A stretch of 63,856 nt of DNA, filler included, from Craspedostauros australis (taxonomy: Eukaryota), in the NCBI GenBank assembly GCA_030167865.1. It is 13 parts of 13 records of this genome, joined end to end, with 100 filler letters (N's around TTAATTAATTAA, not from the genome) between each part and the next. Parts side by side here need not be neighbours in the genome. Positions count along the whole stretch, not along the records: positions 21,932 to 53,420 come from JALAGF010000540.1; 12 more parts are not named here. One strand, 5' to 3'. This document shows, piece after piece, positions 18,850-52,618 of the stretch. The notes beneath the pieces were generated by a model, which saw nothing but the letters and a program-made list of their open reading frames with translations, was not told the DNA's origin and did not search any database. The stretch's first letter is position 1. The number at the start of each line of letters is the position of its first letter. The position numbers and the translations under genes are program-made.

Positions 18850-19986
18850 CTGCACGGATCACTGCTGGAGTTTCTTTCTCAAGAACAAGAGTGATCAACC
18901 AGGATACATCAAACAATTCGTCCAGACAATCAAATCACAGACTGGTGATCAACAAATCATCTTCCGAGGAGACAACAGCGGAGAGAACAAATCCATGCAA
19001 GATATTCTCATCGATACAGGACTGAACGTGAAATTCGAATTCACGGCATCGAACACGCCGCAACAGAACGGTAGAGTAGAACGCAAGTTCGCGTACCTCT
19101 ACACCAAGATCTGCTCCATGCTCAATGGAGCACAACTCGACGAAGAGTACAGGCACGGCCTGTGGGCAGCAGCTGCGAGCACTGCCACCGCCATCGCCAA
19201 CATCACCGTAGCGAAGAATCAGAAGGAGTCACCACATCGACAATTCTTTGGCAACGATCCACCATATGCGGATGCACTCCGTACATTTGGAGAGGTGGGT
19301 GTTGTGAAGACCACCTATGGCGGGATCACCGCCAAGCTCAAGAATAGAAGAGAAGAGATGGTGTTCATCGGATATGCACACCAACACGCATCAGGGGTCT
19401 ACAACATGTACAGACCATCAACCAAGTCACTGATCTGTTCACGTGACATCAAATGGCTCAACCAATCATACGGACAATTCCGCGGCTGGGCACCAGCACC
19501 GAACATATCCAACAAAGTAGGAACAACGGACGCAGACGGCTTCACAACCATTGGACGGAAGGGAGCAATGCCAAGGACGGCAACACGTCGAACATCAGAA
19601 GCAAAGAGAGTATCTTTCGCTGACAGCAACAGGTACTACATCCTATCGGACAGCAACGATGCGGATGATGAGAACGATGGAGCAGTAACCCAACTAATCC
19701 ATAACAACGACGAAGATCGGAGCGAATCCAATCATGAGGATGACAAGATCACACCATCCGGCGACGAAGCTGACGATGACACAGGCATCATTCCTCCAAA
19801 CACACCAGCCAGGTCTACACATGACACACCATCCAGACCTCCACCGAGCAAACCAAGCAAATGTGACATAGCCAGAAAGGAGAGAATCCAACGTCACGAA
19901 TTACGAGGCAGGAAGGGAGAAGCTAATCCCAAGCCAACTACAGGGAAGAGTATTCCCAGAGCTCTGCGTGAGCTCGCAGACTTCAA
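18850..19986 (+). mobile_element. Ty1/copia integrase (rve) fragment
   Basis: WSFFLKNKSD, RGDNSGEN, TPQQNGRVERKF, LRTFGE...KLKNR...FIGY, SRDIKWLN. Confidence 0.92.
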
Positions 19987-20086: not shown

Positions 20087-21000
<914 letters not shown>

Positions 21001-24910: not shown

Positions 24911-26710
24911 CTACGCTATGGACCGCTGGAGCTTGCTCACAAAAGCAATGCCATCCGCATCGTCGATCGATGTCACCAGGACTAGTGCGGCGTCGAGCAT
25001 CATTTTTGCGGATTTGTTCCTCCGCTCACCGTGGTGGTACAGCATGAAGGTCTGTGTCAGCATGGAACGACATTGGGATGATGCTTCCGCGAACAGCTCC
25101 TGGTGGTCATCAAGCCCGCCCTTCTCGGCTTCCGTCTTGACGGCATCGATCGTGGTCAGCCATGCCCTCAGAACGGCGTCAACGACAATTGCGTTCGGCC
25201 TCCATTCCTCGTCGCCTGAAAGCACATGATTCTCCACCATCCGTTGGAATAGAACTGAAGATGCGGGTCCTGCATTGACGAGGCACTTGCTGTTGGCGTA
25301 GGCATTGATGACGGTAGAATATGAAATCACGCTTGGCTTCACGTGGTTGTTGTTTTGCACGAAGTACTGTTCCTCCATCCACTCCAAGATGTCGTTCGCC
25401 TTTTCCGCGTAGTTGGAATCATCCGAGCTTGCAGATGACGATTCTGCTGTGACGGGACTCCCCGGAGTCGCATGCCCATCCTCGGAATTATCGGCTGCCT
25501 CATGGATGATGTCGGTCGACGGTTTCCCTGCGATCTTTGCGAATGCGTTCATGCAGGAATTATAGACGAAGGTGTTGGGCCGAACGGATTCGTACCCCAG
25601 CTGGTATAGCGACGCCATCCGTTGCAGCATCTGGATGGCCTGTTCGACGGATGCCGGATCCTGCTCGTGGGCGTATGCGTTGATGATGGCACCGAATGAC
25701 ACGGCATTCGGCTGCATGTCACGGTCACCCTCAGTGTGCAGCTGTTCCATTTCATTAAGCAGCGCAACAGCCTTGCCCGCGCAGTTTGGCTGGCGTGATC
25801 GTGCGACGACGTTGATCACCATGTTGTATGCTCGGGCCGTGGGCTTGAACTCTTCGATCGGCCTCTCCTCATACTTCTGCTGCAACAGTCGCAGGACTTC
25901 AATCGCCCGCTCTCCGGCATCAGATCGTTGGCATCGATTCCAGGCAGATAGCACAGCATAGAACGCAAAAGCGTTGGGTGTTAACTCCTTGTACCCGATC
26001 TCTCCCGACAGCTCGAGCATCCGTTCCAGAAGCTCTTGCGCCTTCTCCGGAGCATCGGGGCGCGAACAGCGGGACCATGCGTTCAGCACAGCGGTGCAGG
26101 ACACCGCATTCGGTTGCACCAGCTGGGATTTGACATCGCTCTCATGGTGCTTGCCGCGGTACTTGCCATCGTGGTTGGGCGTGATGGCAGCGACCAGCCC
26201 TGTTTCGACGGCTCGCTGGTACGCATCCAATGCCTCGTCCAGCATCTTTTGGACTTTCGGCGCCGTTTTCCTGTCGTACGCCTTGCTCAGTTGATTCAGT
26301 TTGCCGTTGAAGTCCAGCGTTGCGCGATTCACGTATTCTTTTTGATTACGCCCGTGATTGTTGCTTCGATGACGAGAATCGGAGGATGACGCGGGACTCT
26401 GATGACTGTGATTGTTCTTGTGTTTGTTCTGGTGGTTGCGTCGTTCCGGATGTTGCCGCCTGTCGGTCTTCTCAGCGTTTTGTCTCTGCACGGACGCGTG
26501 CAGCGGTGAAGTGCGGCGCTGGAATCCGCCGTGATGCAGGTGATGCGAATGGCTGTCGACGACAGCATCATCTGTCGTGATTGGTCGGCTGCGGATTTGG
26601 CCCACGCTGGATGGTTCGGCGATGGAACGGTGGGCAACAAATCCTTGGGATGTCGCGCAAAGCATCAGTATCGCGATCAGCGCGAACGTTGTTTGATTCA
26701 TCAATTTCAT
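24911..26710 (-). CDS. Pentatricopeptide repeat (PPR) protein, probably plastid-targeted
   Basis: Repeated P(N/T/S)..(S/A/V)Y..(V/I)INA(W/Y) units; signal peptide ending SQG|FVAH. Confidence 0.88.
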   Translation of the reverse strand: MKLMNQTTFALIAILMLCATSQGFVAHRSIAEPSSVGQIRSRPITTDDAVVDSHSHHLHHGGFQRRTSPLHASVQRQNAEKTDRRQHPERRNHQNKHKNNHSHQSPASSSDSRHRSNNHGRNQKEYVNRATLDFNGKLNQLSKAYDRKTAPKVQKMLDEALDAYQRAVETGLVAAITPNHDGKYRGKHHESDVKSQLVQPNAVSCTAVLNAWSRCSRPDAPEKAQELLERMLELSGEIGYKELTPNAFAFYAVLSAWNRCQRSDAGERAIEVLRLLQQKYEERPIEEFKPTARAYNMVINVVARSRQPNCAGKAVALLNEMEQLHTEGDRDMQPNAVSFGAIINAYAHEQDPASVEQAIQMLQRMASLYQLGYESVRPNTFVYNSCMNAFAKIAGKPSTDIIHEAADNSEDGHATPGSPVTAESSSASSDDSNYAEKANDILEWMEEQYFVQNNNHVKPSVISYSTVINAYANSKCLVNAGPASSVLFQRMVENHVLSGDEEWRPNAIVVDAVLRAWLTTIDAVKTEAEKGGLDDHQELFAEASSQCRSMLTQTFMLYHHGERRNKSAKMMLDAALVLVTSIDDADGIAFVSKLQRSIA

Positions 26711-27051: not shown

Positions 27052-29814
27052 TTAGGCTACTTGATCCGGCACAGGTCCGGCCCTGTGGGTTGCCCATCGC
27101 ATTGAAATCACAGGGTGTTTCGACACAATGCTCTTTGCGCGCTTTGTGGCGGCGCGATCTTTGTTGTCAGGGAAGATGAAACGACAGGACATGATGCTGT
27201 TGGTGGGGTCATGTTTCGATTTGTGCGATTCGTCGTGATCGTCGCCGTCGCCGTCGATGCGAATGATCGAAACCTGGCGGCTCCTGTTGGCATCATGATT
27301 GTCGGCGCTGTCGCCATTACCATTGCCACCGCCGTCGCCATGTGCGTGCTTGTCCACGAGCACAATCTTCGCGTGCACAAGCTCCATCGCCTTGTTGAGC
27401 AGGACCGGCGACACCGCCGCATCCAGAGCCGCGTAGACGATTTGATCCGAAGTCAACGGGCGACTGGACCAGTTGCTGGTCTGCTGTGCCTTGTTGAGCA
27501 CCTTGTTGTTCAAAAGAAACTGGCAGACCCGACCGAGCGAGGAGATGTGCACGCGAGCCTTCCGCGTGCGTCGCTTCGCCATCGCATTGCGAACAACCGT
27601 GGAGACTTCGATGACGGCGCTGTAGTGCTGGAATCCTGTCATGTGCGGAAAGCTGGAGGCTAGACGTTGTAGATCGCCGAATAGCTGGAAGCCCACCTTG
27701 ACCACTGCTTCGGAGGAAAAGAGTCGTGCCAAGGCATTTGACAGCATGGTCTCCGTATCGTTCATTTCGTGCGTTGGGGACAAGCATTGGCGACAAAGCA
27801 CCTGCGTGTCCAGGATGTACACCTTGTCGAGCGGGTGGAATGCCATCTGCAACACCGTCACTGGCTGCTCTTCTTCCGACGATTCCAACAGAAACGATGG
27901 CTTCCATTCGCAGTCGATGCCGATCAAAATAGGCGAGTTCGTTGCTTCTGCTGCTGTTGGGGTGGCGCACAACATGGTTTGAATGTCCTTCGCGAATGCT
28001 TGCACCGATTCCCAATCATCGACGACCTGTACCGCAGATTGTGCATCGGTCAAGATATCCGATAGCTGCAAGTATTCAATGTTGGGATCGATAGTTTTTG
28101 CATTCGTGATCCGTTGCATTGCGGATACATTTGTGGTTGGTGGTGATGCTCTGAGGTGATTATCAGATGATGCTGCCGGCGCTGCGTTGTGTAATTCGTC
28201 CGGAATAATTTGAAAGCCAAAGACCACCAAATCAAGGCTGCGTTTATCGATCCAATGTTGCAAAGAGCTGCGATTGCCGACGTTGGTTTTGGCATCCACT
28301 AGGATCAGCTTGCCAGGCTTGAGGTGCTTGAGAGCCTTGGGTCCCTCCACGTCGCCGAGTTTTTGACACAGTGTCTTGCCCGCAATGAGCTGCACCGCCA
28401 TGTCTTGGCCGTCCACACCAGATCGCCATGGCAAGTCAAATGAATCCTTCTTGGTGCCTGTTCCCATGTAGTCGGGCGGCGCCAGATCCACGAAGACGAG
28501 CCGCTTCGCCAATTGACGGACTCCGTTGATGCGACCGAACAGCGTTGTGCGGTGTGATTGCAGTGGGATTGACTGCGGCGGATCGGCTTTGTTGGAAAGA
28601 ACTTGCGCGGCGATACGAGTGTGCGGTGGTTCCAGTGGAAAGAATGGCTTTGGTGATGGTGGTGGTGGTGGTGATGACGATGTTCGTGCTGACGATGATG
28701 AATTGGAGAGCAGGTCATCACTGGGAGCTTGCTGCGCTTCAGTTGATCTGGAAGCCTTGGAGGTTGCCGTTCCACTGTTCTCGTTGCCACCACCGTCATC
28801 ATCGCTGCTGCTATCGTCGCTGTCGCTGTCGCTGCCATCACCAACGACGACATCGGCTACCTCCGTACCTTCCATACGCAGCAGAGTCTCCACGCGAATC
28901 CAGCATTGGCAGTCGGGATGACCGCCGCCGCTCACGAGCATGGTGCCTTCTGTGCACAATCCAGCATCGACGATCGTCCGTAACGCCTCAGGGGCATGAC
29001 CCAGTGGCGGGACGGACATGGGGGGAAAGCCACATTCGGATTCCACCAGATCCGAGGACAGAAGTTGCACCGAGATACGTTCATCATCGTCATTGCGTTC
29101 TAGGTGCGATTCGACCTTGCGCAGGTCGACCTTTGCACAAGAGGGAGATATGATGACTACGACGCCTTGGCTTGTGACATTGAAGAGCAGTGAATTGATG
29201 GGCGTATTGGTGATGGTGATGTCCGTTTCGTCGTTGCTGTTGTTGTCGTTGTTGTTGTCGTCTTCGTCTTCACCTTTGTCTTCTGCGTCTATATCATTAC
29301 CATGCTTGCTGTCTCCATGCCGCAAATCGAGATGGATGTTCTGCTCTCCTTCGAAGGCAGCGATGGACCCGACGATGTTTTGCAGCCGTTGAAAGCGTTG
29401 TCAACGTTGCTCGTCCTGCTTTGGATCAGCTGAAAAGGTCAACGACAGAGGGTCGATCGTCCGCGATGGCTGGCTGGGCTGGTCTGTACCCGCAGTGTTG
29501 GTATCGTGTGTATCCTGAGACAAGGAGTCTGCGCGGGGATCGCAGTCGTTGGTCGAGTGTTTGCCATCCAGCGCGGTCATTTTTGTCGTCGTCGTCGACA
29601 GTGGTGCTGATTCCGATTCCGATGCTGCCAGTTGTCGACAGAGAGGAGATCGGGATGATGCGAAGGAGTGTGTTCGTACGCGTAGTTCGAAGGAATGGAC
29701 AGACGCGATGAAACGGGGAGGTGGTGATGCTCGATGACCCGTGCTGGTGGCTCGAAAGGAGGTCGAAGCTACCAGAATTGTCCCTCCAATCGCGAACCCG
29801 ATTGTTCTCATCAT
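27052..29814 (-). CDS. YbaK-like deacylase + OB-fold + DnaQ-like 3'-5' exonuclease fusion, interrupted by an in-frame TGA at 29401-29403
   Basis: CGFPPMSVPPLGH...SGGG (YbaK); GRINGVRQLAKRLVFVDL (OB fold); IGIDCEW, KVGF..GDL..L and SNWSSRPLT.DQIVYAALDA (Exo I-III). Confidence 0.8.
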
Positions 29815-40769: not shown

Positions 40770-43700
40770 CTAGATGTCCATGTATCGTATCTCAGTGACT
40801 TCGATGTTCCCCTGATCGCAGTAGACTGCATTCAAGATGTGAGCTCGTTCTTCCGACGTGCTGTTCTCGCCAGGTTCCGCATGCCTGGTCTCTTCACCAT
40901 CGCCTTGACGCTGTTCCACCAGCCCTTCGCTGTTCACAGAATCCTGCGACAGATGTTGCTGCGAGTTTTTGACGGGTTCTGGTTGATAAATCGCCTTGCC
41001 CAGCTGCTGCATCGTTTGGTACGACGACTGTTTGTTCTTCGGTCGCGGCGGCGTCTTGGTGGCCTTCATGTTGGTGGATGAAGACTTGAGGCGTTGTTGT
41101 AGTTGCTGCTGCTGCTGTGATCTGGTTGGGAAGAACGGTTGGTTGGAACTGGATGTTTCTGGTGATCCGCGAGATCCCGCAGGGCGCAAGGCTGGCACGA
41201 TCCAGCTGTTGCTGTCATCGGTCTGTACTGCGGATGGTGGTTGTTTCGAGAACTTCATGGCACTGGTGTTGGTGTTGGCGGTGGCGCTGCTGTTGCTTCC
41301 TTCACTCTCGTTGCTCCTGCCGTTGTTCGCCGAAGTCCTTTTCAGCTTCTCCAGACGTTTCTTTGTGGATTGCATTGCCGCTCGTGCTCTCATTCCCGCG
41401 CGGGGGGACAACAGCAACGCCGATGCAATTATCGGCGCCGACGAGGAAGATCGTGGTGTTGCCGACAACTTGGTAGCCGCGACTGCATCTTCGCCATCGA
41501 TTTGCGTGGCGAAGGATGCGGAGAACAACCCATTGTCTTCCTCGCTGGCGGGCGAGCTGATCGATTGCATCAAGGACGCTGTCAGTCTTGCGGAGTCCCT
41601 CGCGTTCGTGGTAATGCCGGCGGTGGCTGCCGTTGTGTTCGGATCGGTGGATGTGGTTGATAATGCTTGTTCGCGTTCGTGCTCGTGTTCTTGTACTTGT
41701 TGGCTTGATGATATCACCATTTGGTTCGCTGGTGGTCCATCTGCGGCTTCGGCCTCCATCGTGGAGACAGGCGAAATCATGGTGAATAGACGGTTGCGGC
41801 TGTCCTCGCTGGATGAGAGGGTCGAGACGGCGCCGACGTCTGACAAATCGTCATCAGTGCTCTCGACGTTTTGGCGGGACGTGCCTGGCACCATGTCTGA
41901 GCTGTTGCCCTCCATCGGCTTGTCGACGGTTGCCACGGATTCGGACGATATCTCCAACGACGATGAGTTGGGGGAATGCTGCGCAATCTCAGAGCCGAGC
42001 AATTCGTCTTCGTCGTCCGTATGATCATTGTTACCTGTGTGGCGAGATGGGGTGGTGGTGGTAATGATCATGGCTTCTGGTTCTGAGGCGCCAACTGCGC
42101 TGCTACGTGCAGAACAAATCCCGCTGTGCATGGAACCCATGAGCTCGTCTTCGGAGTTGACAGGAATGGATGGCAGCGAAGTAGGTTGCTTCGCGCCGTC
42201 CGTTTTCTCGCTATCGAATAGCTTCGACTGCTGCTGCTGGTGCTCGTTACCGCCATCCTGTTCATAGTCACTTTCATCACCCTCGTCTTCGAACAGCGTA
42301 CTCAACCGCCTTCCATTGCTTGCGGATGAGTGGAAGGAACGTGATCGATCGAACGGGCTCAGTTCGTCACTTGGTGCATCTCCAGAGGAAGACGTTGAGG
42401 CCCATGAGGACGTCTGCTTCTTCTTCGTGCAGAACTCATCCGATGGACATCCGGATACTTCTAAGTCATCATGCTCATGTTCATGTTCATGCTCCTCTTC
42501 GGCTTCGTCCTTGTTGTCGTCATGCTTGTCTTCACGTCGGTGCTCATGCTCATCCACGCCATCATTGCTCCTTTGATCAGAAACTGCATCGCCATGCTGC
42601 ATATTGTTCACCTGGTCGTTTGTCTTGGCAGGTTCGTGCTCGGCTTGTTCGAACTTGGTGAGCAACGATTGGGATCGTTCGTCTTCCGGTTCCTCCTCAT
42701 TCTGCTGCGTGCGATTGCGCTTCTTCAGTGGCATCGGTGATGTGGCCTCGATGGCCTGCTCAAAGCGTTGCCGTGCCTTGGCCATGCGTTCGCGCAGACG
42801 TTGCACGTTGGCGTTGGAACTGGAGGCTACCGTGCTGCCGCTGCGCGATCGGGACAGGACCGGGATCGGCGGACCCGCGTTGTCATCAGTCTCATCCATG
42901 GGCGTGTTGCGTTGCGTGCTGGGCGTGAGCAGCGGTGAGATGGCGAAGGAGTGCTTGGGTGTCTGGTCTTCCTCTTCTTCCTTGTCTTGTCGATCAATGC
43001 CGATCACGGGGGATAAACCGAGCGTCGAATCCTGTTCGAGACTTCGCACATCTGTGAGCGTCGTGGCGCTGTTGGAGAGGAATGCGGAAGCTGGTGTCTC
43101 AACCGTACCGCCCATTGTGGAATCGTCAGGATCCACCGAAGACAATGACAATGATGTTGCCGCGCCCGACCCTGATCCTGCCGTGATAGCCGATGGCTGC
43201 GACGCGCTGTGATCGCTTTGCAGATCGATGGAAATGTCCTGATGGCGCTCCTCGGTCTCAGATGGCATGACCATGGCGTTGTAGGACGTAGAGGTGGATG
43301 CAGATGCGGATGGGGTGCTTTGCTGATTGTGCAATTCTTCGGCCTGCGTCTTGAGACGCGCCGTGAGCTGCGTTTGCTCGAGCTGCGTTGGCTCGTCGTG
43401 GAAGCGCTGGAAGGGCGCGGTGATGCCACAGAAGTTGACCGTCGAATTGATGGATGACTGCAGCTTGCTCTTGAGAATGGCAACCTCATTCCTGTGCGCT
43501 GTTTCCCTCGCGTCGTATTGCAGCATGCGTTCCTGCATATCCCGCGCGTTCTTCGTCTCCAGCACCTTCTTCTCTGCTTCCAGATGCTCGATGCGGCGAT
43601 GCAGCAGCCGGATCGTTTCGCTTTGGACGGATGATGCGCCGTCGTTGCTGGCGTTTCCGAAATTCGTGATGAGAGACGTCGAGGCGTTGCTGCTGGCCAT

Positions 43701-45293
43701 AGCGATTGATTCGCCCACATTGTTCTCCATGCTGCTTGACGGTTGGACGTGGCTGATGTCACCGTTGTTGCCCGAAGTGTTGCGCAGCGTATCCTGCTCC
43801 AACTTGCGGCGCTGTTCGACGTGGGTGGATTTGCTCTGCGCCTCCTTCAGTCGTCGTTCTGCACGTTCTCGGAGATGCCGTTCCTTCTTGAGTTCCAGTC
43901 GCAGATGCGCCTCGGTTGATCGGGCACGCAGCAGATCGTCCTGGAGTTGGCGGTACGATGCCGATGATGACGAGGTGCTGGAGATGACGCCCGACAGGAA
44001 GGTTTGCGATGCGGAGCCCTGCGTCGATGTGGGAACCGAAGATTCGCACGATGACGAGGACGACAAGGATGAAGACGAGAATGCTGATGAGGATGAGGGA
44101 GAAGATGACAGAGATGCGAGTGCCGTGGTTGGCAAGTTGTCCACGTTGTGTTTCCGCTGTTTCGTCTGCGGAGACGACACCTTCGAGTTGGACGCGGAGG
44201 AATTGGATTGCGCAAGGCTGAGCTTGGCCTTGAGCTGTTGGATCTCCTTCTCCTGCCTCTGCACCTTCTCCTTGTTGCTCTTGTTCTCCTGCAGCACGTC
44301 CGACATGACCTTGCTGAGCTTGCGCCTGTCCTTGAGATGTTCCGTGCCCATGAGGATGGTGCCTTCCGTCGCTTCCCTGAGCTTGGACTTGCAGGCCGCC
44401 AGCTCCTTCCGCAGGTTGTGGAACTGCTTGGTGGAAGCGCCCTTCTCCTGCTGCACGGTCTGCTTTGCCTTGCTGATCTCTTCCTTCGCCTTCTTGTGCT
44501 GCACCATGAGACGATCCAACCGCTCCTGCACCACCTTGTGATCCCGCTCCTTCTTCTTGTACATCGCCAGCTCCTTGCGCATGGCGAACTCCTTGCTCTG
44601 CGCGATGCGCAGCTTCGTCTCCAGTTCTGACCTTTGTGCTTTCGTCGATGCCTCCATGCGCTTCAGCTTCTGCCTCCAGGTGAGGCTCAGATGTCGCAGC
44701 TCTCCATCATGAGGAGCGCTGGCAATGCTGCGGCCGCTTCCGCTCAGGGTGCTGTGGCTGCTGGTGCTCTCATGCAGGTGCACGTCGGCTTCATCCAGCG
44801 CCGCGTGTTCTGACATGGTGTTCGTGTTGTCGTTCGTCTTGTCGTTCGTCTTGTCGTTCGTCTTGTCGTTCGTCTCAGTGTCAACGGCTGGTGTTGTGAT
44901 CGGCGCGGTACTGCTCAAGATCCCGACGTGATCAGCCTCGCCTTCTTTTGGTCTGCAATTTTGGTCGTTGCCTTTGCTATCCGCGAGACTACTGCTGTCT
45001 GTGTTGCTGCTACTGCCGCTGTGACGATCCGATTTGTGTGCCGAGCACGAGGATGATGGTCCACCCGCAACTGTTGCGATCCGGCTGCTGTTGTTGATTC
45101 TGGCTAGTCTCGCAGATCTTGTGGATCGTGTGCTATCGCTGCTGGCGCGCGAGTGCGTGGAGGATGTGTTGTTGGTTTGTATCGTCCTGTCTCCCATGAC
45201 CATGGCTATTCTTACTCCCGTCAGCTGATTTTCCTGATGTATGGTATGTTGGAGGCTGTTGGTGCTGCTGATGACTTGCACCTCTCTCGCCAA
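40770..45293 (-). CDS. Large Ser/acidic-rich, largely disordered coiled-coil protein of unknown function
   Basis: 4.5-kb uninterrupted ORF with heptad-rich segments in the N-terminal half; first ATG ~45203. Confidence 0.75.
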   Translation of the reverse strand: MAREVQVISSTNSLQHTIHQENQLTGVRIAMVMGDRTIQTNNTSSTHSRASSDSTRSTRSARLARINNSSRIATVAGGPSSSCSAHKSDRHSGSSSNTDSSSLADSKGNDQNCRPKEGEADHVGILSSTAPITTPAVDTETNDKTNDKTNDKTNDNTNTMSEHAALDEADVHLHESTSSHSTLSGSGRSIASAPHDGELRHLSLTWRQKLKRMEASTKAQRSELETKLRIAQSKEFAMRKELAMYKKKERDHKVVQERLDRLMVQHKKAKEEISKAKQTVQQEKGASTKQFHNLRKELAACKSKLREATEGTILMGTEHLKDRRKLSKVMSDVLQENKSNKEKVQRQEKEIQQLKAKLSLAQSNSSASNSKVSSPQTKQRKHNVDNLPTTALASLSSSPSSSSAFSSSSLSSSSSCESSVPTSTQGSASQTFLSGVISSTSSSSASYRQLQDDLLRARSTEAHLRLELKKERHLRERAERRLKEAQSKSTHVEQRRKLEQDTLRNTSGNNGDISHVQPSSSMENNVGESIAMASSNASTSLITNFGNASNDGASSVQSETIRLLHRRIEHLEAEKKVLETKNARDMQERMLQYDARETAHRNEVAILKSKLQSSINSTVNFCGITAPFQRFHDEPTQLEQTQLTARLKTQAEELHNQQSTPSASASTSTSYNAMVMPSETEERHQDISIDLQSDHSASQPSAITAGSGSGAATSLSLSSVDPDDSTMGGTVETPASAFLSNSATTLTDVRSLEQDSTLGLSPVIGIDRQDKEEEEDQTPKHSFAISPLLTPSTQRNTPMDETDDNAGPPIPVLSRSRSGSTVASSSNANVQRLRERMAKARQRFEQAIEATSPMPLKKRNRTQQNEEEPEDERSQSLLTKFEQAEHEPAKTNDQVNNMQHGDAVSDQRSNDGVDEHEHRREDKHDDNKDEAEEEHEHEHEHDDLEVSGCPSDEFCTKKKQTSSWASTSSSGDAPSDELSPFDRSRSFHSSASNGRRLSTLFEDEGDESDYEQDGGNEHQQQQSKLFDSEKTDGAKQPTSLPSIPVNSEDELMGSMHSGICSARSSAVGASEPEAMIITTTTPSRHTGNNDHTDDEDELLGSEIAQHSPNSSSLEISSESVATVDKPMEGNSSDMVPGTSRQNVESTDDDLSDVGAVSTLSSSEDSRNRLFTMISPVSTMEAEAADGPPANQMVISSSQQVQEHEHEREQALSTTSTDPNTTAATAGITTNARDSARLTASLMQSISSPASEEDNGLFSASFATQIDGEDAVAATKLSATPRSSSSAPIIASALLLSPRAGMRARAAMQSTKKRLEKLKRTSANNGRSNESEGSNSSATANTNTSAMKFSKQPPSAVQTDDSNSWIVPALRPAGSRGSPETSSSNQPFFPTRSQQQQQLQQRLKSSSTNMKATKTPPRPKNKQSSYQTMQQLGKAIYQPEPVKNSQQHLSQDSVNSEGLVEQRQGDGEETRHAEPGENSTSEERAHILNAVYCDQGNIEVTEIRYMDI

Positions 45294-46467
45294 CGATCAC
45301 AAGTCGCAACTCGTCCGAATAAGTGTGCAGGCTTCGTCTGGTCGTGTGTGGAGTGTTTCAATTGCTCAGCTCTGTTCTGTTCTCTCTCGCGCAACTCGTG
45401 CTCAGACTCGTGCACTGCCGCGCTCCGCCGCTCTGTGCTTGGGCTTATTGGCGTCTTCTGCGTTTCGTATAGTAGCTCGAATAGTACTATCGGCACTCTG
45501 TCGATTCAGATGCCGCGGTAGCAGGTATCCTCTGCTCTATGTATCTGGAAATACCGCGCTCTTCCGATGGATTTTGGGCGGCGTGCCACAAACACACACA
45601 AAGAGAGGCGCTCAGTGAACGGTCACAACCAAGGCGCCAAAATCTGGGTTTCCGGCCGTTGCTCGATCGGGCTCGATGTATTATATTCCTTGGGGTTGCT
45701 GATGGGTATCGTCGGTTGATGGTGATGGTTGCGACAATGGTGATTGCTTTGAGCAGCTTCTTTCTTGTTGGTTGGGTGCTTTGCTTGAGTGCTTTGCTTG
45801 AGTGTGCATTACTTTCTGGGGAATGGAATGGCGCCGATCCTGAGAGCAACCACGACAACCACGCTTCTATCCGCACAAGTGAAATGGTTGTCGAGTGGGT
45901 ACCAGTGATGATGGAGCAGCGTTTTCGTTCTTGTTTCCTCACCAACACAGGCAGGCACACGCGCGCACACACGCACGAGGCGAGAGGCAGTTGGCACCAA
46001 GATCTGGCGGATGGCGATCACTCTTTCTACGAACTCACTTTTTTCCTTTTTTTCTCGTGTGAGAGGTGTTAAGATGACATGTTCTTTGGCGACATCCGTC
46101 AAACGCCCCGCTCTTCTTCATGTGCTTGAGGAGTGTCCGTTGCATTTCGTCTCTTCAACACACGATACACCTCACTAACACATGTATATCTGTTATTCAA
46201 GTATGAATATCTATATAATTTGGTAAACTATCACTTCAGGGTTCGCCGTGCCAGCAAAAACAAATTGTAATATATTAGTATATTACCTCATACCCAAAGG
46301 TCACGAATACAAATCAAGGCAGGTATTACCGCGACTTCCAACGCATCAAGATTTCGATTCTGTTCGTCGAGATCTTGGAAAAGAGCACAACACAGGTTGT
46401 GCAACCACAACTTTTCCAATCGGAGGAACGAGAACGAGAACGAGAACGAGGACATCCATCATCGACC

Positions 46468-50600: not shown

Positions 50601-50965
50601 GTGCGTACTCGTACGAGGGCAGTGAAGCCCAAATTGAGAGCGGGAAATGAGCCGGCAGACACAAATCGACAGTAGCTTCGACGCAACAAATAATTGGGTT
50701 AGGAGTAACACGAAACATTAAGATGGCAGCAGCAGACTTGCGAGGATGGTATGCTATGCTATGATGCAATGTTCGCGTTGCTACTCGCATTGTTGCTCTT
50801 CTTTGATGCCAGCCATTCTTTTCGAAATTGTGACCAACTTGTATCGTATCTTTTATCTGCAGAGATTCGCTGCCACTGACGCAGTACAGACACCAACGTC
50901 AGAACCTTCGCAAAAATGCGTTCGTTTCTCTCGTTCGCGAACAACGCACCAACCGCATCAGATGG

Positions 50966-52618
50966 ATGAAGAGGATCGCCATTCAATCGCAACCCACTTC
51001 GCAAGAGCGACAATCCACAACCAAAACGAGCCACAGATCGAACGAGAGACCACCTTTGATGCCGATGCCCATGCCGATGCCGAATGGGAGCAGGAGAATA
51101 GGGATGGGATCCCTCATCAGCCTCACCAGCTGCTGCATTGTGTTGCTGTCGCTGTCGCTATCATCACCGTCCACGACTTTGACCAACGCATTCGTCGCGC
51201 CATCGCAGTCTTCGAGACATGCTCATCCTGCTGAGCTGCGTTCCTCCATCACGGATCCAGACAACAACAACAACAGCAACGATGATGGCGACAACCAGCT
51301 CTCCCGCCGCCAATTCGCCGAGCTCTCGGTCGCCGCTCTCGGATTGGGCGTCTCGTTCATCGGCACGCGCGAACTGAAACCCACGGATTATGGGTTGTGG
51401 GGCATCCTGCCGGTCGGCACGTACAAGCAGAAGCCGACCCTCATGGAGACGATCGTGCCGGACCGCATCTGGACCTTCGATCAGAAGTTCGGCATCCTCA
51501 ACGTGCAGGTCCCGCTGCGCATGACGGTAATCAAACTGAGCTCGGGCGGCTTGTTCGTCTACAACCCCGTCGCGGCCACGCCCGAATGCTTGGATCTGCT
51601 GCGGCCTCTCATCGAGCAGCATGGTCCCATCCGGCACATCGTCGTGGGATCCGTCGCACTGGAGCACAAGGTCTACGCCGGCGTGTTGGCTCAGAAATTC
51701 CCAAAGGCGCAGGTCTGGCTCACGCCGGGACAATACTCCTTCCCCGTCGATCTGCCCGATCCCTTCCTGGGATTCCCCGCGTCACGCACCAAGGACATCC
51801 CGTCGTCGATGGCCGACGCGCCGGCGGAATGGAAGGGCGACTTCGAATTCCAAACGTTGGGACCATTCATCAGCCGCGATGGTGCTTTCGGTGAGACGGT
51901 GTTCTTGCACAAGGACACCAAGACGCTGGTCGTGACGGACACCGTCCTCGAGGTCACGGACGAGGTGCCGAAGGTGTGCGAGGTGGATCCCACGCCGTTG
52001 CTGTACCACGCTCGCGACACCGTCACGCAAGTTTTGGAGGATACTCCGCAAGTTCGCGAGATCGGCTGGCGACGCGTGGCCTTGTTCGGCCTCTTCTTCA
52101 CCCCCAGCGCGATCGACATCAAGGATGCCGACGTGGCCTTCCAAGAGCGCCGACCGGATATCAATCCCGACTTCATCGGAATCTACCCCTGGGACTGGGT
52201 CCGGGATGACAAGGCCAGCTTCGACGCATTGAAGGGCGGTTTGCTGGTGGCGCCAATCCTGCAAACCCTCATCCTCAATCGCAACCCTATCGAGGTGCTG
52301 GATTTCGCCGACGAGGTCGCCGCATGGGACATCGGACGCATCATCCCATCACACTTCAAGAACGATCTCAAGTACAGCGGGTCCGACTACCGCAAGGCAT
52401 TTTCCTTCCTGGAGGCCAGCGGGGTTCCACCCAGCCTGCCGAAACCACTTGATGCGGATTTGCAGTTTTTGCGAGAGAGCGAAGAGGGATTGCTGGCGAG
52501 CGGCGCCATCAGCCCCGTCCCCGCGTTGCCAGGCGGCTCTGTGAGTCGGGAGGAGATCCTGAAACAGACAGTCTACCAGTGCAGAGCAGGCATCTGCGGT
52601 CAGCAGTCAAAAGTGTAG
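50966..52618 (+). CDS. DUF4336 family (metallo-beta-lactamase-like) protein, plastid-targeted
   Basis: IWTFDQ..G...V.VPLRMTVIKL..GGLFVYNPVA.T.EC, EHKV, IIPSHF; signal peptide TNA|FVAP. Confidence 0.85.
   Translation: MKRIAIQSQPTSQERQSTTKTSHRSNERPPLMPMPMPMPNGSRRIGMGSLISLTSCCIVLLSLSLSSPSTTLTNAFVAPSQSSRHAHPAELRSSITDPDNNNNSNDDGDNQLSRRQFAELSVAALGLGVSFIGTRELKPTDYGLWGILPVGTYKQKPTLMETIVPDRIWTFDQKFGILNVQVPLRMTVIKLSSGGLFVYNPVAATPECLDLLRPLIEQHGPIRHIVVGSVALEHKVYAGVLAQKFPKAQVWLTPGQYSFPVDLPDPFLGFPASRTKDIPSSMADAPAEWKGDFEFQTLGPFISRDGAFGETVFLHKDTKTLVVTDTVLEVTDEVPKVCEVDPTPLLYHARDTVTQVLEDTPQVREIGWRRVALFGLFFTPSAIDIKDADVAFQERRPDINPDFIGIYPWDWVRDDKASFDALKGGLLVAPILQTLILNRNPIEVLDFADEVAAWDIGRIIPSHFKNDLKYSGSDYRKAFSFLEASGVPPSLPKPLDADLQFLRESEEGLLASGAISPVPALPGGSVSREEILKQTVYQCRAGICGQQSKV

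Follow-up and report, generated by a model that had tools for sequence, protein, structure and literature searches.

A gene on the minus strand of a 63,856-nucleotide stretch of the Craspedostauros australis genome (assembly GCA_030167865.1; the whole stretch is referred to as the window) codes for a YbaK/ProX-like domain, an OB fold and a DEDDy 3'-5' exonuclease domain that are fused in one polypeptide. The window is eukaryotic nuclear DNA, and the gene represents a conserved but uncharacterised algal family, most members of which add an SRA-like domain at the C-terminus. Each domain is well known singly, while the joint protein is new within the literature searched: a description of a fusion between YbaK and an exonuclease was not found in plastid, diatom and Mut-7 contexts. 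We consider the best explanation to be that this nuclear gene of a diatom-like alga, with its presequence, ProX/YbaK fold, OB fold and Mut-7-branch exonuclease, specifies a plastid 3'-end exonuclease, and assign a probability of about 0.45 to this reading. The copy in the window is interrupted by a single in-frame TGA.

Reading frame and in-frame stop codon

The original prediction, made from the sequence alone, had placed three sets of motifs in one open reading frame (ORF) behind a targeting-like peptide. The presence of this ORF (27052-29325 (-), 757 aa, with TTG as 'start') was confirmed, and YbaK, OB and exonuclease do lie in it together. However, the in-frame TGA had been overlooked, and for this reason the ORF as predicted has neither an ATG start nor a targeting peptide. 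The upstream ORF (29401-29814, MMRTIGFAIGGTILVASTSF...) shares the frame with the main ORF and is divided from it by this one TGA, so that between the ATG at 29814 and the TAA at 27052 the frame contains no other break. When read across the TGA, the modules stand in one polypeptide behind a putative presequence of organelle type.

The tblastn alignment of homologue P0003 spans the TGA (29547-27073), and in an alignment of 30 sequences conserved coding sequence flanks it on both sides. The segment directly downstream, QRFQRLQNIVGSIAAFEG, fits the family consensus RxAFERLxxTVxSLAxxxG. The next in-frame ATG after the TGA is M103 of the ORF, which already lies within the YbaK-like domain.

Two ways of accommodating the TGA were rejected. 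An intron that excises it would remove conserved coding sequence, as the first AG past the TGA lies beyond the conserved QRFQRLQNIVGSIAAFEG. A variant code in which TGA is a sense codon is contradicted by the MCM, CRAL_TRIO and CN_hydrolase ORFs of the window, all three backed by Pfam, which terminate in TGA, and by the 782 codons following the stop, which contain no second TGA. The TGA may be a sequencing error, a nonsense allele, a site of readthrough or the mark of a pseudogene that arose very recently.

Low-complexity, Asp/Gly/Ser/Asn-rich in-frame inserts that are specific to this copy follow the exonuclease (27205-27369 (-)) and separate the YbaK-like domain from the OB fold (28657-28848 (-)). 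Another such insert, also in frame, is found at about 29212-29316 (-), before the YbaK strand.

A family of fusion proteins

The fusion is not a chance arrangement, because a word-indexed search retrieved 46 proteins which match with the same domain order (E 4.9e-157 to 6.1e-54, 33-45% identity). One named homologue is from Seminavis robusta, and the cluster members of another come from metagenome-assembled genomes of Bacillariaceae. Module-specific hidden Markov models (HMMs) were cut from the alignment and counted over the 46 homologues. The OB module is present in all of them and the exonuclease module in 45, while the YbaK-like module and a fourth, C-terminal module are each found in 43.

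An exhaustive HMMER search with the YbaK and OB part as query extended the family to 135 representatives at E<=1e-3 (72 at E<=1e-10). Architecture classes were assigned to the 119 representatives that were new to this search, many of which may be fragments. The most frequent classes are YbaK+OB+exonuclease+SRA (32) and YbaK+OB+exonuclease (30), followed by YbaK only (26), YbaK+OB (12), OB only (8), OB+exonuclease+SRA and OB+exonuclease (5 each) and YbaK+exonuclease (1). Among 31 of the new representatives that were scanned with Pfam, the combination of tRNA_edit and exonuclease was seen repeatedly. Automatic database labels call members of the family either 'Exonuclease mut-7' (the Seminavis homologue) or 'prolyl-tRNA editing enzyme YbaK/EbsC'.

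More distant relatives combine the modules in other ways. The metagenomic protein P0193 (860 aa) carries an exonuclease, tRNA_edit and a Mut7-C RNase domain, and PF01927 was found in this distant relative only; P0137 (755 aa, also metagenomic) carries tRNA_edit, ankyrin repeats and an exonuclease. In both of these, and in a third metagenomic protein (P0149, 972 aa), a YbaK domain which has kept its Lys is joined to a Mut-7-type exonuclease, with tRNA_edit, ankyrin repeats, OB fold and exonuclease as one of the arrangements. A Lys-bearing member also occurs in the green alga Parachlorella kessleri (P0164). Some Lys-bearing relatives give strong tRNA_edit matches (E 1e-17 to 1e-21) and have the exonuclease attached.

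As read from these domain matches, the YbaK-OB-exonuclease core is widespread, with the Lys kept in other relatives including a green alga. The fusion of an editing fold with a Mut-7-type exonuclease exists in at least three arrangements, in diatoms and in a green alga, and we argue from this recurrence that the handling of aminoacyl ends and 3' exonucleolysis are functionally coupled.

The YbaK/ProX-like domain

Pfam reports PF04073 (tRNA_edit) at residues 43-150 of the ORF with 27.6 bits against a cut-off of 25.5 (E 3.4e-6), so that the predicted module of YbaK type is borne out. Homologues score between 26 and 39.5 bits. The NCBIfam model YbaK/EbsC stays below threshold (14.5 bits, cut-off 153.25). 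A single-sequence phmmer search of the YbaK region against the PDB gave chance-level matches only (best E 0.052, unrelated proteins), and a family profile was therefore needed for a structural match. This profile retrieved 2cx5 (E 2.8e-7), 1wdv (4.8e-7) and 1dbu (0.0067).

These three are free-standing trans-editing deacylases (TTHA1699, APE2540 and YbaK, respectively). About 115 residues can be aligned with them, including the G-F-x-x-x-V-P-P-x-G-H loop. The substrate loop CGFPPMSVPPLGH aligns with GFAIGGVPPVGH of 2cx5, and the GF....VPP.GH loop is retained; G262, F263, P269, P270 and G296-G298 are invariant in the 30-sequence alignment. Unlike the free-standing enzymes, the domain of the window protein is fused to other modules, has an extra conserved helix in front and carries Asn in place of the Lys of (V/I)K(S/T)L.

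The replacement had been suspected from the motif INSLLF, together with the suggestion that the domain may only bind its ligand. The profile alignment to the solved ProX structure 2cx5 confirms it, as the N of 'INSL' falls on the K of 'VKSLVF'. The conserved Lys is essential in YbaK and ProXp-ala. Among 166 relatives, the column holds N in 70, K in 48, a gap in 43, D in 2, E in 2 and Q in 1. Asn is thus found in 70 of the 123 relatives that have a residue at this position, and it holds across a clade. On the tree, at least six changes between K and N are required. We infer that Lys is the ancestral state, because distant members carry it, and that it was lost more than once.

The OB fold

For the middle module, an AlphaFold2 model of 28171-28662, computed with 29 homologues, reaches a predicted local distance difference test score (pLDDT) of 92. 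The elements follow each other in the order beta1-3, helix, beta4-5, and the model is a five-stranded OB barrel in which the helix connects strand 3 to strand 4. It can be superposed on the N-domains of aminoacyl-tRNA synthetases. A Foldseek search of the PDB returned 25 matches at E<=1e-3, with LysRS and AsnRS chains at ranks 1-4 (E 1.6e-4 to 3.8e-4) and an SSB at rank 5. By VIA-align, the OB fold of PolC (Z 9.3), the anticodon-binding domain of AspRS 5gro (Z 8.5; root mean square deviation 3.0 over 95 residues), the MCM N-domain (Z 8.2) and AsnRS 2xti (Z 8.1) are ties. Language-model features place PF01336 clusters nearest among the named Atlas clusters (0.90; 177 of 256 features in common). 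In the predicted structure the middle domain is thus confirmed as an OB fold of PF01336-like type.

The original prediction had gone further and called it an anticodon-type OB fold. Fold and PF01336-like type stand, but anticodon specificity does not follow, since the OB folds of PolC, MCM and SSB score equally well. The module has the same fold as the anticodon-binding OB domains of class IIb synthetases (LysRS, AsnRS and AspRS), and its GR..R...K.L.F.DL pattern resembles the synthetase motif. In contrast to these, it lacks a sequence-profile match, is only 11-21% identical and is not joined to a synthetase core. In five homologues, PF01336 was not found by Pfam at E<=0.1. As reported in PMC12021450, OB folds of the Trbp111/Arc1p type bind the CCA end and can even deacylate Ala-tRNA. 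We take this as a lead that the OB fold of the window protein need not read an anticodon.

The exonuclease domain

PF01612 (DNA_pol_A_exo1) is matched at residues 460-638 of the ORF with 53.1 bits (cut-off 23.6). All five DEDDy residues, D634 and E636 (within DCEW), D714, Y794 and D798, are invariant in the 30 sequences and align with the motifs of WRN and Nibbler. The family profile against the PDB ranks Nibbler/Mut-7 first (E 3.4e-13), followed by WRN (4.4e-8), with EXD2 (1e-5) and RNase D (1.7e-4) further down; the order of solved relatives is Nibbler, then WRN, diDNase, EXD2 and NrnC, and exonuclease domains of DNA polymerase I are also among the matches. TIGR01388 (rnd) is far below its cut-off (15.7 bits, 298.95 required). 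Pfam reports neither an HRDC domain in the window protein nor Mut7-C (PF01927) in the window protein or five homologues.

As judged from these profiles, the exonuclease belongs to the Mut-7/Nibbler/WRN branch and not to RNase D. The earlier assignment as RNase D-like is therefore correct at the superfamily level only, with Nibbler/Mut-7 and WRN being closer. The window exonuclease shares KVGF..DL and SNW..RPL..Q..YAALDA with Nibbler/Mut-7/EXD3 (7jw2 and 7jw6, 'Exonuclease mut-7 homolog'), but those proteins have no N-terminal YbaK-like and OB modules and no organelle presequence. With WRN, EXD2 and RNase D, which are other members of PF01612, it has the DEDDy centre in common, while their helicase, HRDC or other partner domains are missing from the window protein.

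The SRA-like domain and its recurrent loss

The fourth domain, present in 43 of the 46 close homologues according to its module HMM, is absent from the window protein. It has no Pfam match at E<=0.1 in the homologues. Language-model features relate it to the clusters DUF3427, SRA_ScoMcrA and RE_AspBHI_N (0.94), and a model of the C-terminus of P0003 (pLDDT 88) matches residues 803-953 of SauUSI (VIA-align Z 8.8), the SRA domain of SUVH5 (Z 7.5) and that of UHRF1/NP95 (Z 6.0). Further structural matches are KRYPTONITE (Z within 7.5-6.0), AspBHI, AbaSI, MspJI, LpnPI and ScoMcrA. The top Foldseek matches (SauUSI, LpnPI, MspJI and SUVH5) are weak, with E-values of 3e-3 to 3e-2 (best 2.9e-3). SRA-like and DUF3427 readers have endonucleases, helicases or methyltransferases as partners, whereas the long-form relatives described here pair the domain with an exonuclease and a YbaK-like domain.

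In long-form relatives, a conserved beta-hairpin after the exonuclease leads into the SRA-like domain. The window protein stops three residues past this hairpin. A tblastn search with three long homologues detected the SRA-like domain nowhere in the 64-kb window in any frame. We rejected the idea that its absence is a truncation artefact, as the ORF ends in a TAA, the next gene begins about 340 bases further on, and none of the frames gives an SRA-like match.

Short forms are not restricted to the window. We examined 80 metagenome loci and found the hairpin in 18 of them. It is followed by the SRA-like domain in 12 loci and by a stop codon within about 25 codons in the other six (L008, L010, L011, L014, L028 and L033). 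For L008, L014 and L028, a further 1.9-3.8 kb of DNA is available past the stop and the SRA-like domain was not found there. In a tree of 92 rows, most short forms constitute one old clade, which holds L010, L011 and L014. Another short clade, supported at 95%, unites L008 with P0011 and P0078. A single old short-form clade that includes the window was rejected, as the window instead stands alone within a clade otherwise dominated by long forms (25 long and 3 short rows in all). Going by these alignments and trees, the SRA-like domain has been lost repeatedly, and what stays constant is the YbaK-OB-exonuclease core.

In two near-identical loci (L012, 4291-4490, and L013, 5887-6083), the exonuclease is in one ORF and the hairpin with the SRA-like domain in another, about 130-200 bases apart. 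This split probably reflects a short intron or a frameshift.

Putative presequence and neighbouring PPR gene

N-termini were judged by eye. The putative presequence starts with the hydrophobic MMRTIGFAIGGTILVASTS, followed by F and then by a Ser/Thr/Arg/Pro-rich stretch. A hydrophobic N-terminus with a small residue (A, S, G or C) and then F is seen in at least 17 of the 46 homologues and also in L008. The 'ASAFAP' motif is linked to plastid import in diatoms in PMC4329603. The N-terminus of the window protein would resemble this pattern and be a bipartite presequence, and the enzyme is probably plastid-bound. In PMC5462543, on the plastid proteome of ochrophytes, the words exonuclease, YbaK and deacylase do not occur in the main text, though the supplements may list the family.

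The tandem arrangement with a PPR gene, which the original prediction had called a plastid one, is also found. This gene lies downstream on the same strand and has a similar, signal-peptide-like N-terminus if M91 of its mechanically called ORF (about 26710) is taken as the start, ending in ...ATSQG before F. The coordinates of all features of the fusion gene and of its neighbour are listed in Table 1.

Table 1 Features of the YbaK-OB-exonuclease gene and its PPR neighbour in the window.
Feature	Position	Strand	Basis or remark
Probable full coding sequence	27052..29814	(-)	920 codons + TAA, single frame, one TGA interruption
Signal-peptide-like N-terminus, residues 1-20, ending ...LVASTS before F	29755..29814	(-)	Sequence reading
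Ser/Thr/Pro/Arg-rich transit-peptide-like and linker region, residues 21-137	29404..29754	(-)	Ends in family-conserved ...SLTFSADP...
In-frame TGA, residue 138	29401..29403	(-)	Alignment column mostly Arg in homologues, conserved stretches either side
Conserved N-terminal helix segment (QRFQRLQNIVGSIAAFEG...) before YbaK-like core	29317..29397	(-)	Module HMM match, residues 140-166; alignment
YbaK/ProX-like (tRNA_edit) domain	28849..29211	(-)	PF04073; loop motifs CGFPPMSVPPLGH and GGGH retained
AAT codon, Asn207, at conserved YbaK/ProX Lys position	29194..29196	(-)	Aligned to K of VKSLVF in 2cx5
OB fold, nucleic-acid-binding (PF01336-like) type	28204..28656	(-)	AlphaFold2 (pLDDT 92), Foldseek, VIA-align, language-model features
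DEDDy 3'-5' exonuclease domain	27370..28032	(-)	PF01612; D634, E636, D714, Y794, D798 (full-length numbering)
Conserved beta-hairpin segment after exonuclease	27064..27204	(-)	Module HMM; strands 11-18 and 39-47 of the P0003 C-terminus model
Stop TAA	27052-27054	(-)	End of coding sequence
Neighbouring PPR gene, signal-peptide-like N-terminus (MKLMNQTTFALIAILMLCATSQG before F)	24911..26710	(-)	Pfam PF13041, PF13812, PF12854

Proposed function

We tentatively favour RNA or tRNA as the substrate, at slightly less than even odds, because aminoacyl-tRNA 3' ends are, to our knowledge, the sole ligands known for the YbaK fold, because the fusion recurs together with a Mut7-C RNase domain and because the nearest solved exonuclease trims small RNAs. 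Nibbler is an RNA 3' trimmer. The protein would be imported into the plastid by means of an endoplasmic reticulum signal peptide and a transit-like presequence, and would there act as an exonuclease directed at the 3' ends of single-stranded nucleic acids, with tRNA or another plastid RNA as the most likely target. The single strand or the anticodon region would be gripped by the OB fold, while the 3'-terminal adenosine, which may be aminoacylated, would sit in the YbaK-like pocket. In relatives that have the Lys, the amino acid would probably be removed first, because esterification of the 3' end should stop a 3' exonuclease. In the Asn-type clade, the YbaK-like domain is more likely to be a sensor or binder than a deacylase. 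Since 3' exonucleolysis needs a free 3'-OH, a deacylase or an ester-sensing pocket beside the nuclease would make mechanistic sense.

A number of results weigh against a plastid enzyme of this kind. With the catalytic Lys absent, a deacylation step is doubtful here. The middle module has no Pfam match at E<=1, PF01336 included, no aminoacyl-tRNA synthetase is among the 32 profile matches to the PDB, and DNA-binding OB folds (PolC with Z 9.3, MCM with 8.2, and SSB) match as well as the synthetase domains. The next-nearest solved exonucleases, WRN, diDNase and EXD2, are annotated as DNA enzymes, and the SRA-like domain of most relatives matches only readers of modified DNA. The copy itself is also at issue: as assembled, it cannot give rise to the targeted protein without readthrough, it keeps 106 of the 124 columns that are at least 90% conserved in the others (0.855, the lowest of 30 sequences, the next being 0.903), its end branch is the longest in the tree of its clade (1.14, median 0.53), and it may be non-functional.

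The last group of observations leads to a reading that is compatible with any function of the family, namely recent inactivation of the window copy, as an allele or pseudogene, or an assembly error at the TGA. A nonsense change of the CGA-to-TGA type would have occurred at a conserved Arg, and the locus may decay while another copy works. The lone TGA at 29401-29403 amid conserved coding sequence fits this, as does the lack of an in-frame ATG before M103; TGA is a normal stop in the window, the share of conserved columns is the smallest, the end branch is long in the 92-row tree as well (0.84, median 0.46) and the SRA-like domain was not found across the 64 kb. However, the TGA is the only lesion in 920 codons, with no frameshift, and neither the five DEDDy residues nor the YbaK loop motifs are damaged. 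Seven of the 18 deviations from conserved columns (positions 859-917) lie in the hairpin beside the lost domain, where the non-conservative changes F859D, Q905M, G910H and P917D and a deletion of two residues cluster, whereas most of the 11 core deviations are conservative (M->L, L->I, Y->F, D->N). The enzyme core thus appears to be still constrained. True-stop short forms in other lineages (the six of 18 loci) mean that loss of the SRA-like domain alone is no sign of decay, and a base-call error or a heterozygous allele would look identical. We regard inactivation or an assembly error as quite possible, though short of probable.

Because all solved relatives of the SRA-like domain read modified DNA, a DNA-directed function of the family has to be weighed, as the main rival, against the plastid RNA or tRNA exonuclease. 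The enzyme would then act on plastid or other organellar DNA, with the OB fold binding single-stranded DNA and a WRN/EXD2-like exonuclease resecting 3' ends. In long forms, the SRA-like domain would flip out and read a modified base, and this would serve repair, the degradation of DNA with or without modification, or the control of how organelle DNA is inherited; the YbaK-like domain would have degenerated to a structural or regulatory role. Three methods (language-model features, Foldseek and VIA-align) relate the C-terminus of 43 of the 46 homologues to SRA/DUF3427 readers of modified DNA, the profile matches include the exonuclease domains of WRN, diDNase, EXD2 and DNA polymerase I, the OB fold is tied with those of PolC, MCM, RPA and SSB, and loss of the YbaK Lys suits a domain that no longer needs tRNA chemistry. 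What a DNA substrate leaves unexplained is the YbaK fold itself, which occurs in 43 of the 46 homologues with its pocket loops kept (CGFPP..VPPLGH and GGGGHP), persists in Lys-bearing forms (48 of 166) and is also fused in the architecture of exonuclease and Mut7-C RNase. Moreover, the SRA-like domain is repeatedly lost and hence accessory to the core, and none of the Foldseek E-values for the SRA match is <=1e-3. We consider a DNA-directed enzyme unlikely on balance.

About equally unlikely is a more elaborate form of the tRNA reading, in which the protein is a surveillance nuclease for plastid tRNA, of a type so far undescribed. The YbaK pocket would read the charging state (as a deacylase with Lys, as a sensor with Asn), the synthetase-like OB fold would hold the tRNA, the SRA-like domain of long forms, turned from DNA to RNA, would flip and inspect a modified base, and the Mut-7-type exonuclease would remove the tRNA from its 3' end, which would amount to decay of charged or hypomodified organellar tRNA. 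The full model of the original prediction, in which a single active enzyme would identify a mischarged tRNA through the anticodon, deacylate it by YbaK and then degrade or trim it, agrees with the set and order of the domains and could describe Lys-bearing relatives with tRNA_edit and exonuclease, but it is improbable here, given Asn for Lys in this protein and in 70 of 123 relatives, an anticodon reading that does not follow from the OB fold, and no known context of mischarging.

If tRNA is the substrate of the plastid 3'-end exonuclease, the family would add a further pathway to the quality control of organellar tRNA; with DNA as the substrate, an SRA-type reader would be linked to plastid DNA turnover. 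The natural series of variants, with Lys or Asn and with or without the SRA-like domain, provides ready-made controls. The family is more interesting than the window copy, which is the weaker subject because of its in-frame stop.

Other features of the window

The other ORFs of the window code for MCM, pieces of copia-type retroelements, MOSC, CRAL/TRIO, CN-hydrolase, an AAA ATPase and DUF4336. The retroelement pieces (GAG-pre-integrase and retroviral polymerase SH3-like domains) lie at 1853-4120 (-) and 18851-19980 (+) with masked runs of N alongside; the window contains 1523 N in total. The C-terminal part of an MCM helicase (end of the P-loop, AAA-lid and MCM3-like winged helix) is found at 20089-20997 (+) and starts right after a run of N, so that the gene is partial. 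An open frame of 1508 codons at 40773-45296 (-) has no Pfam match at E<=1e-3. At 50834-52615 (+), a full-length DUF4336 domain is matched very strongly (E 1.5e-120) and is preceded by about 200 additional N-terminal residues.

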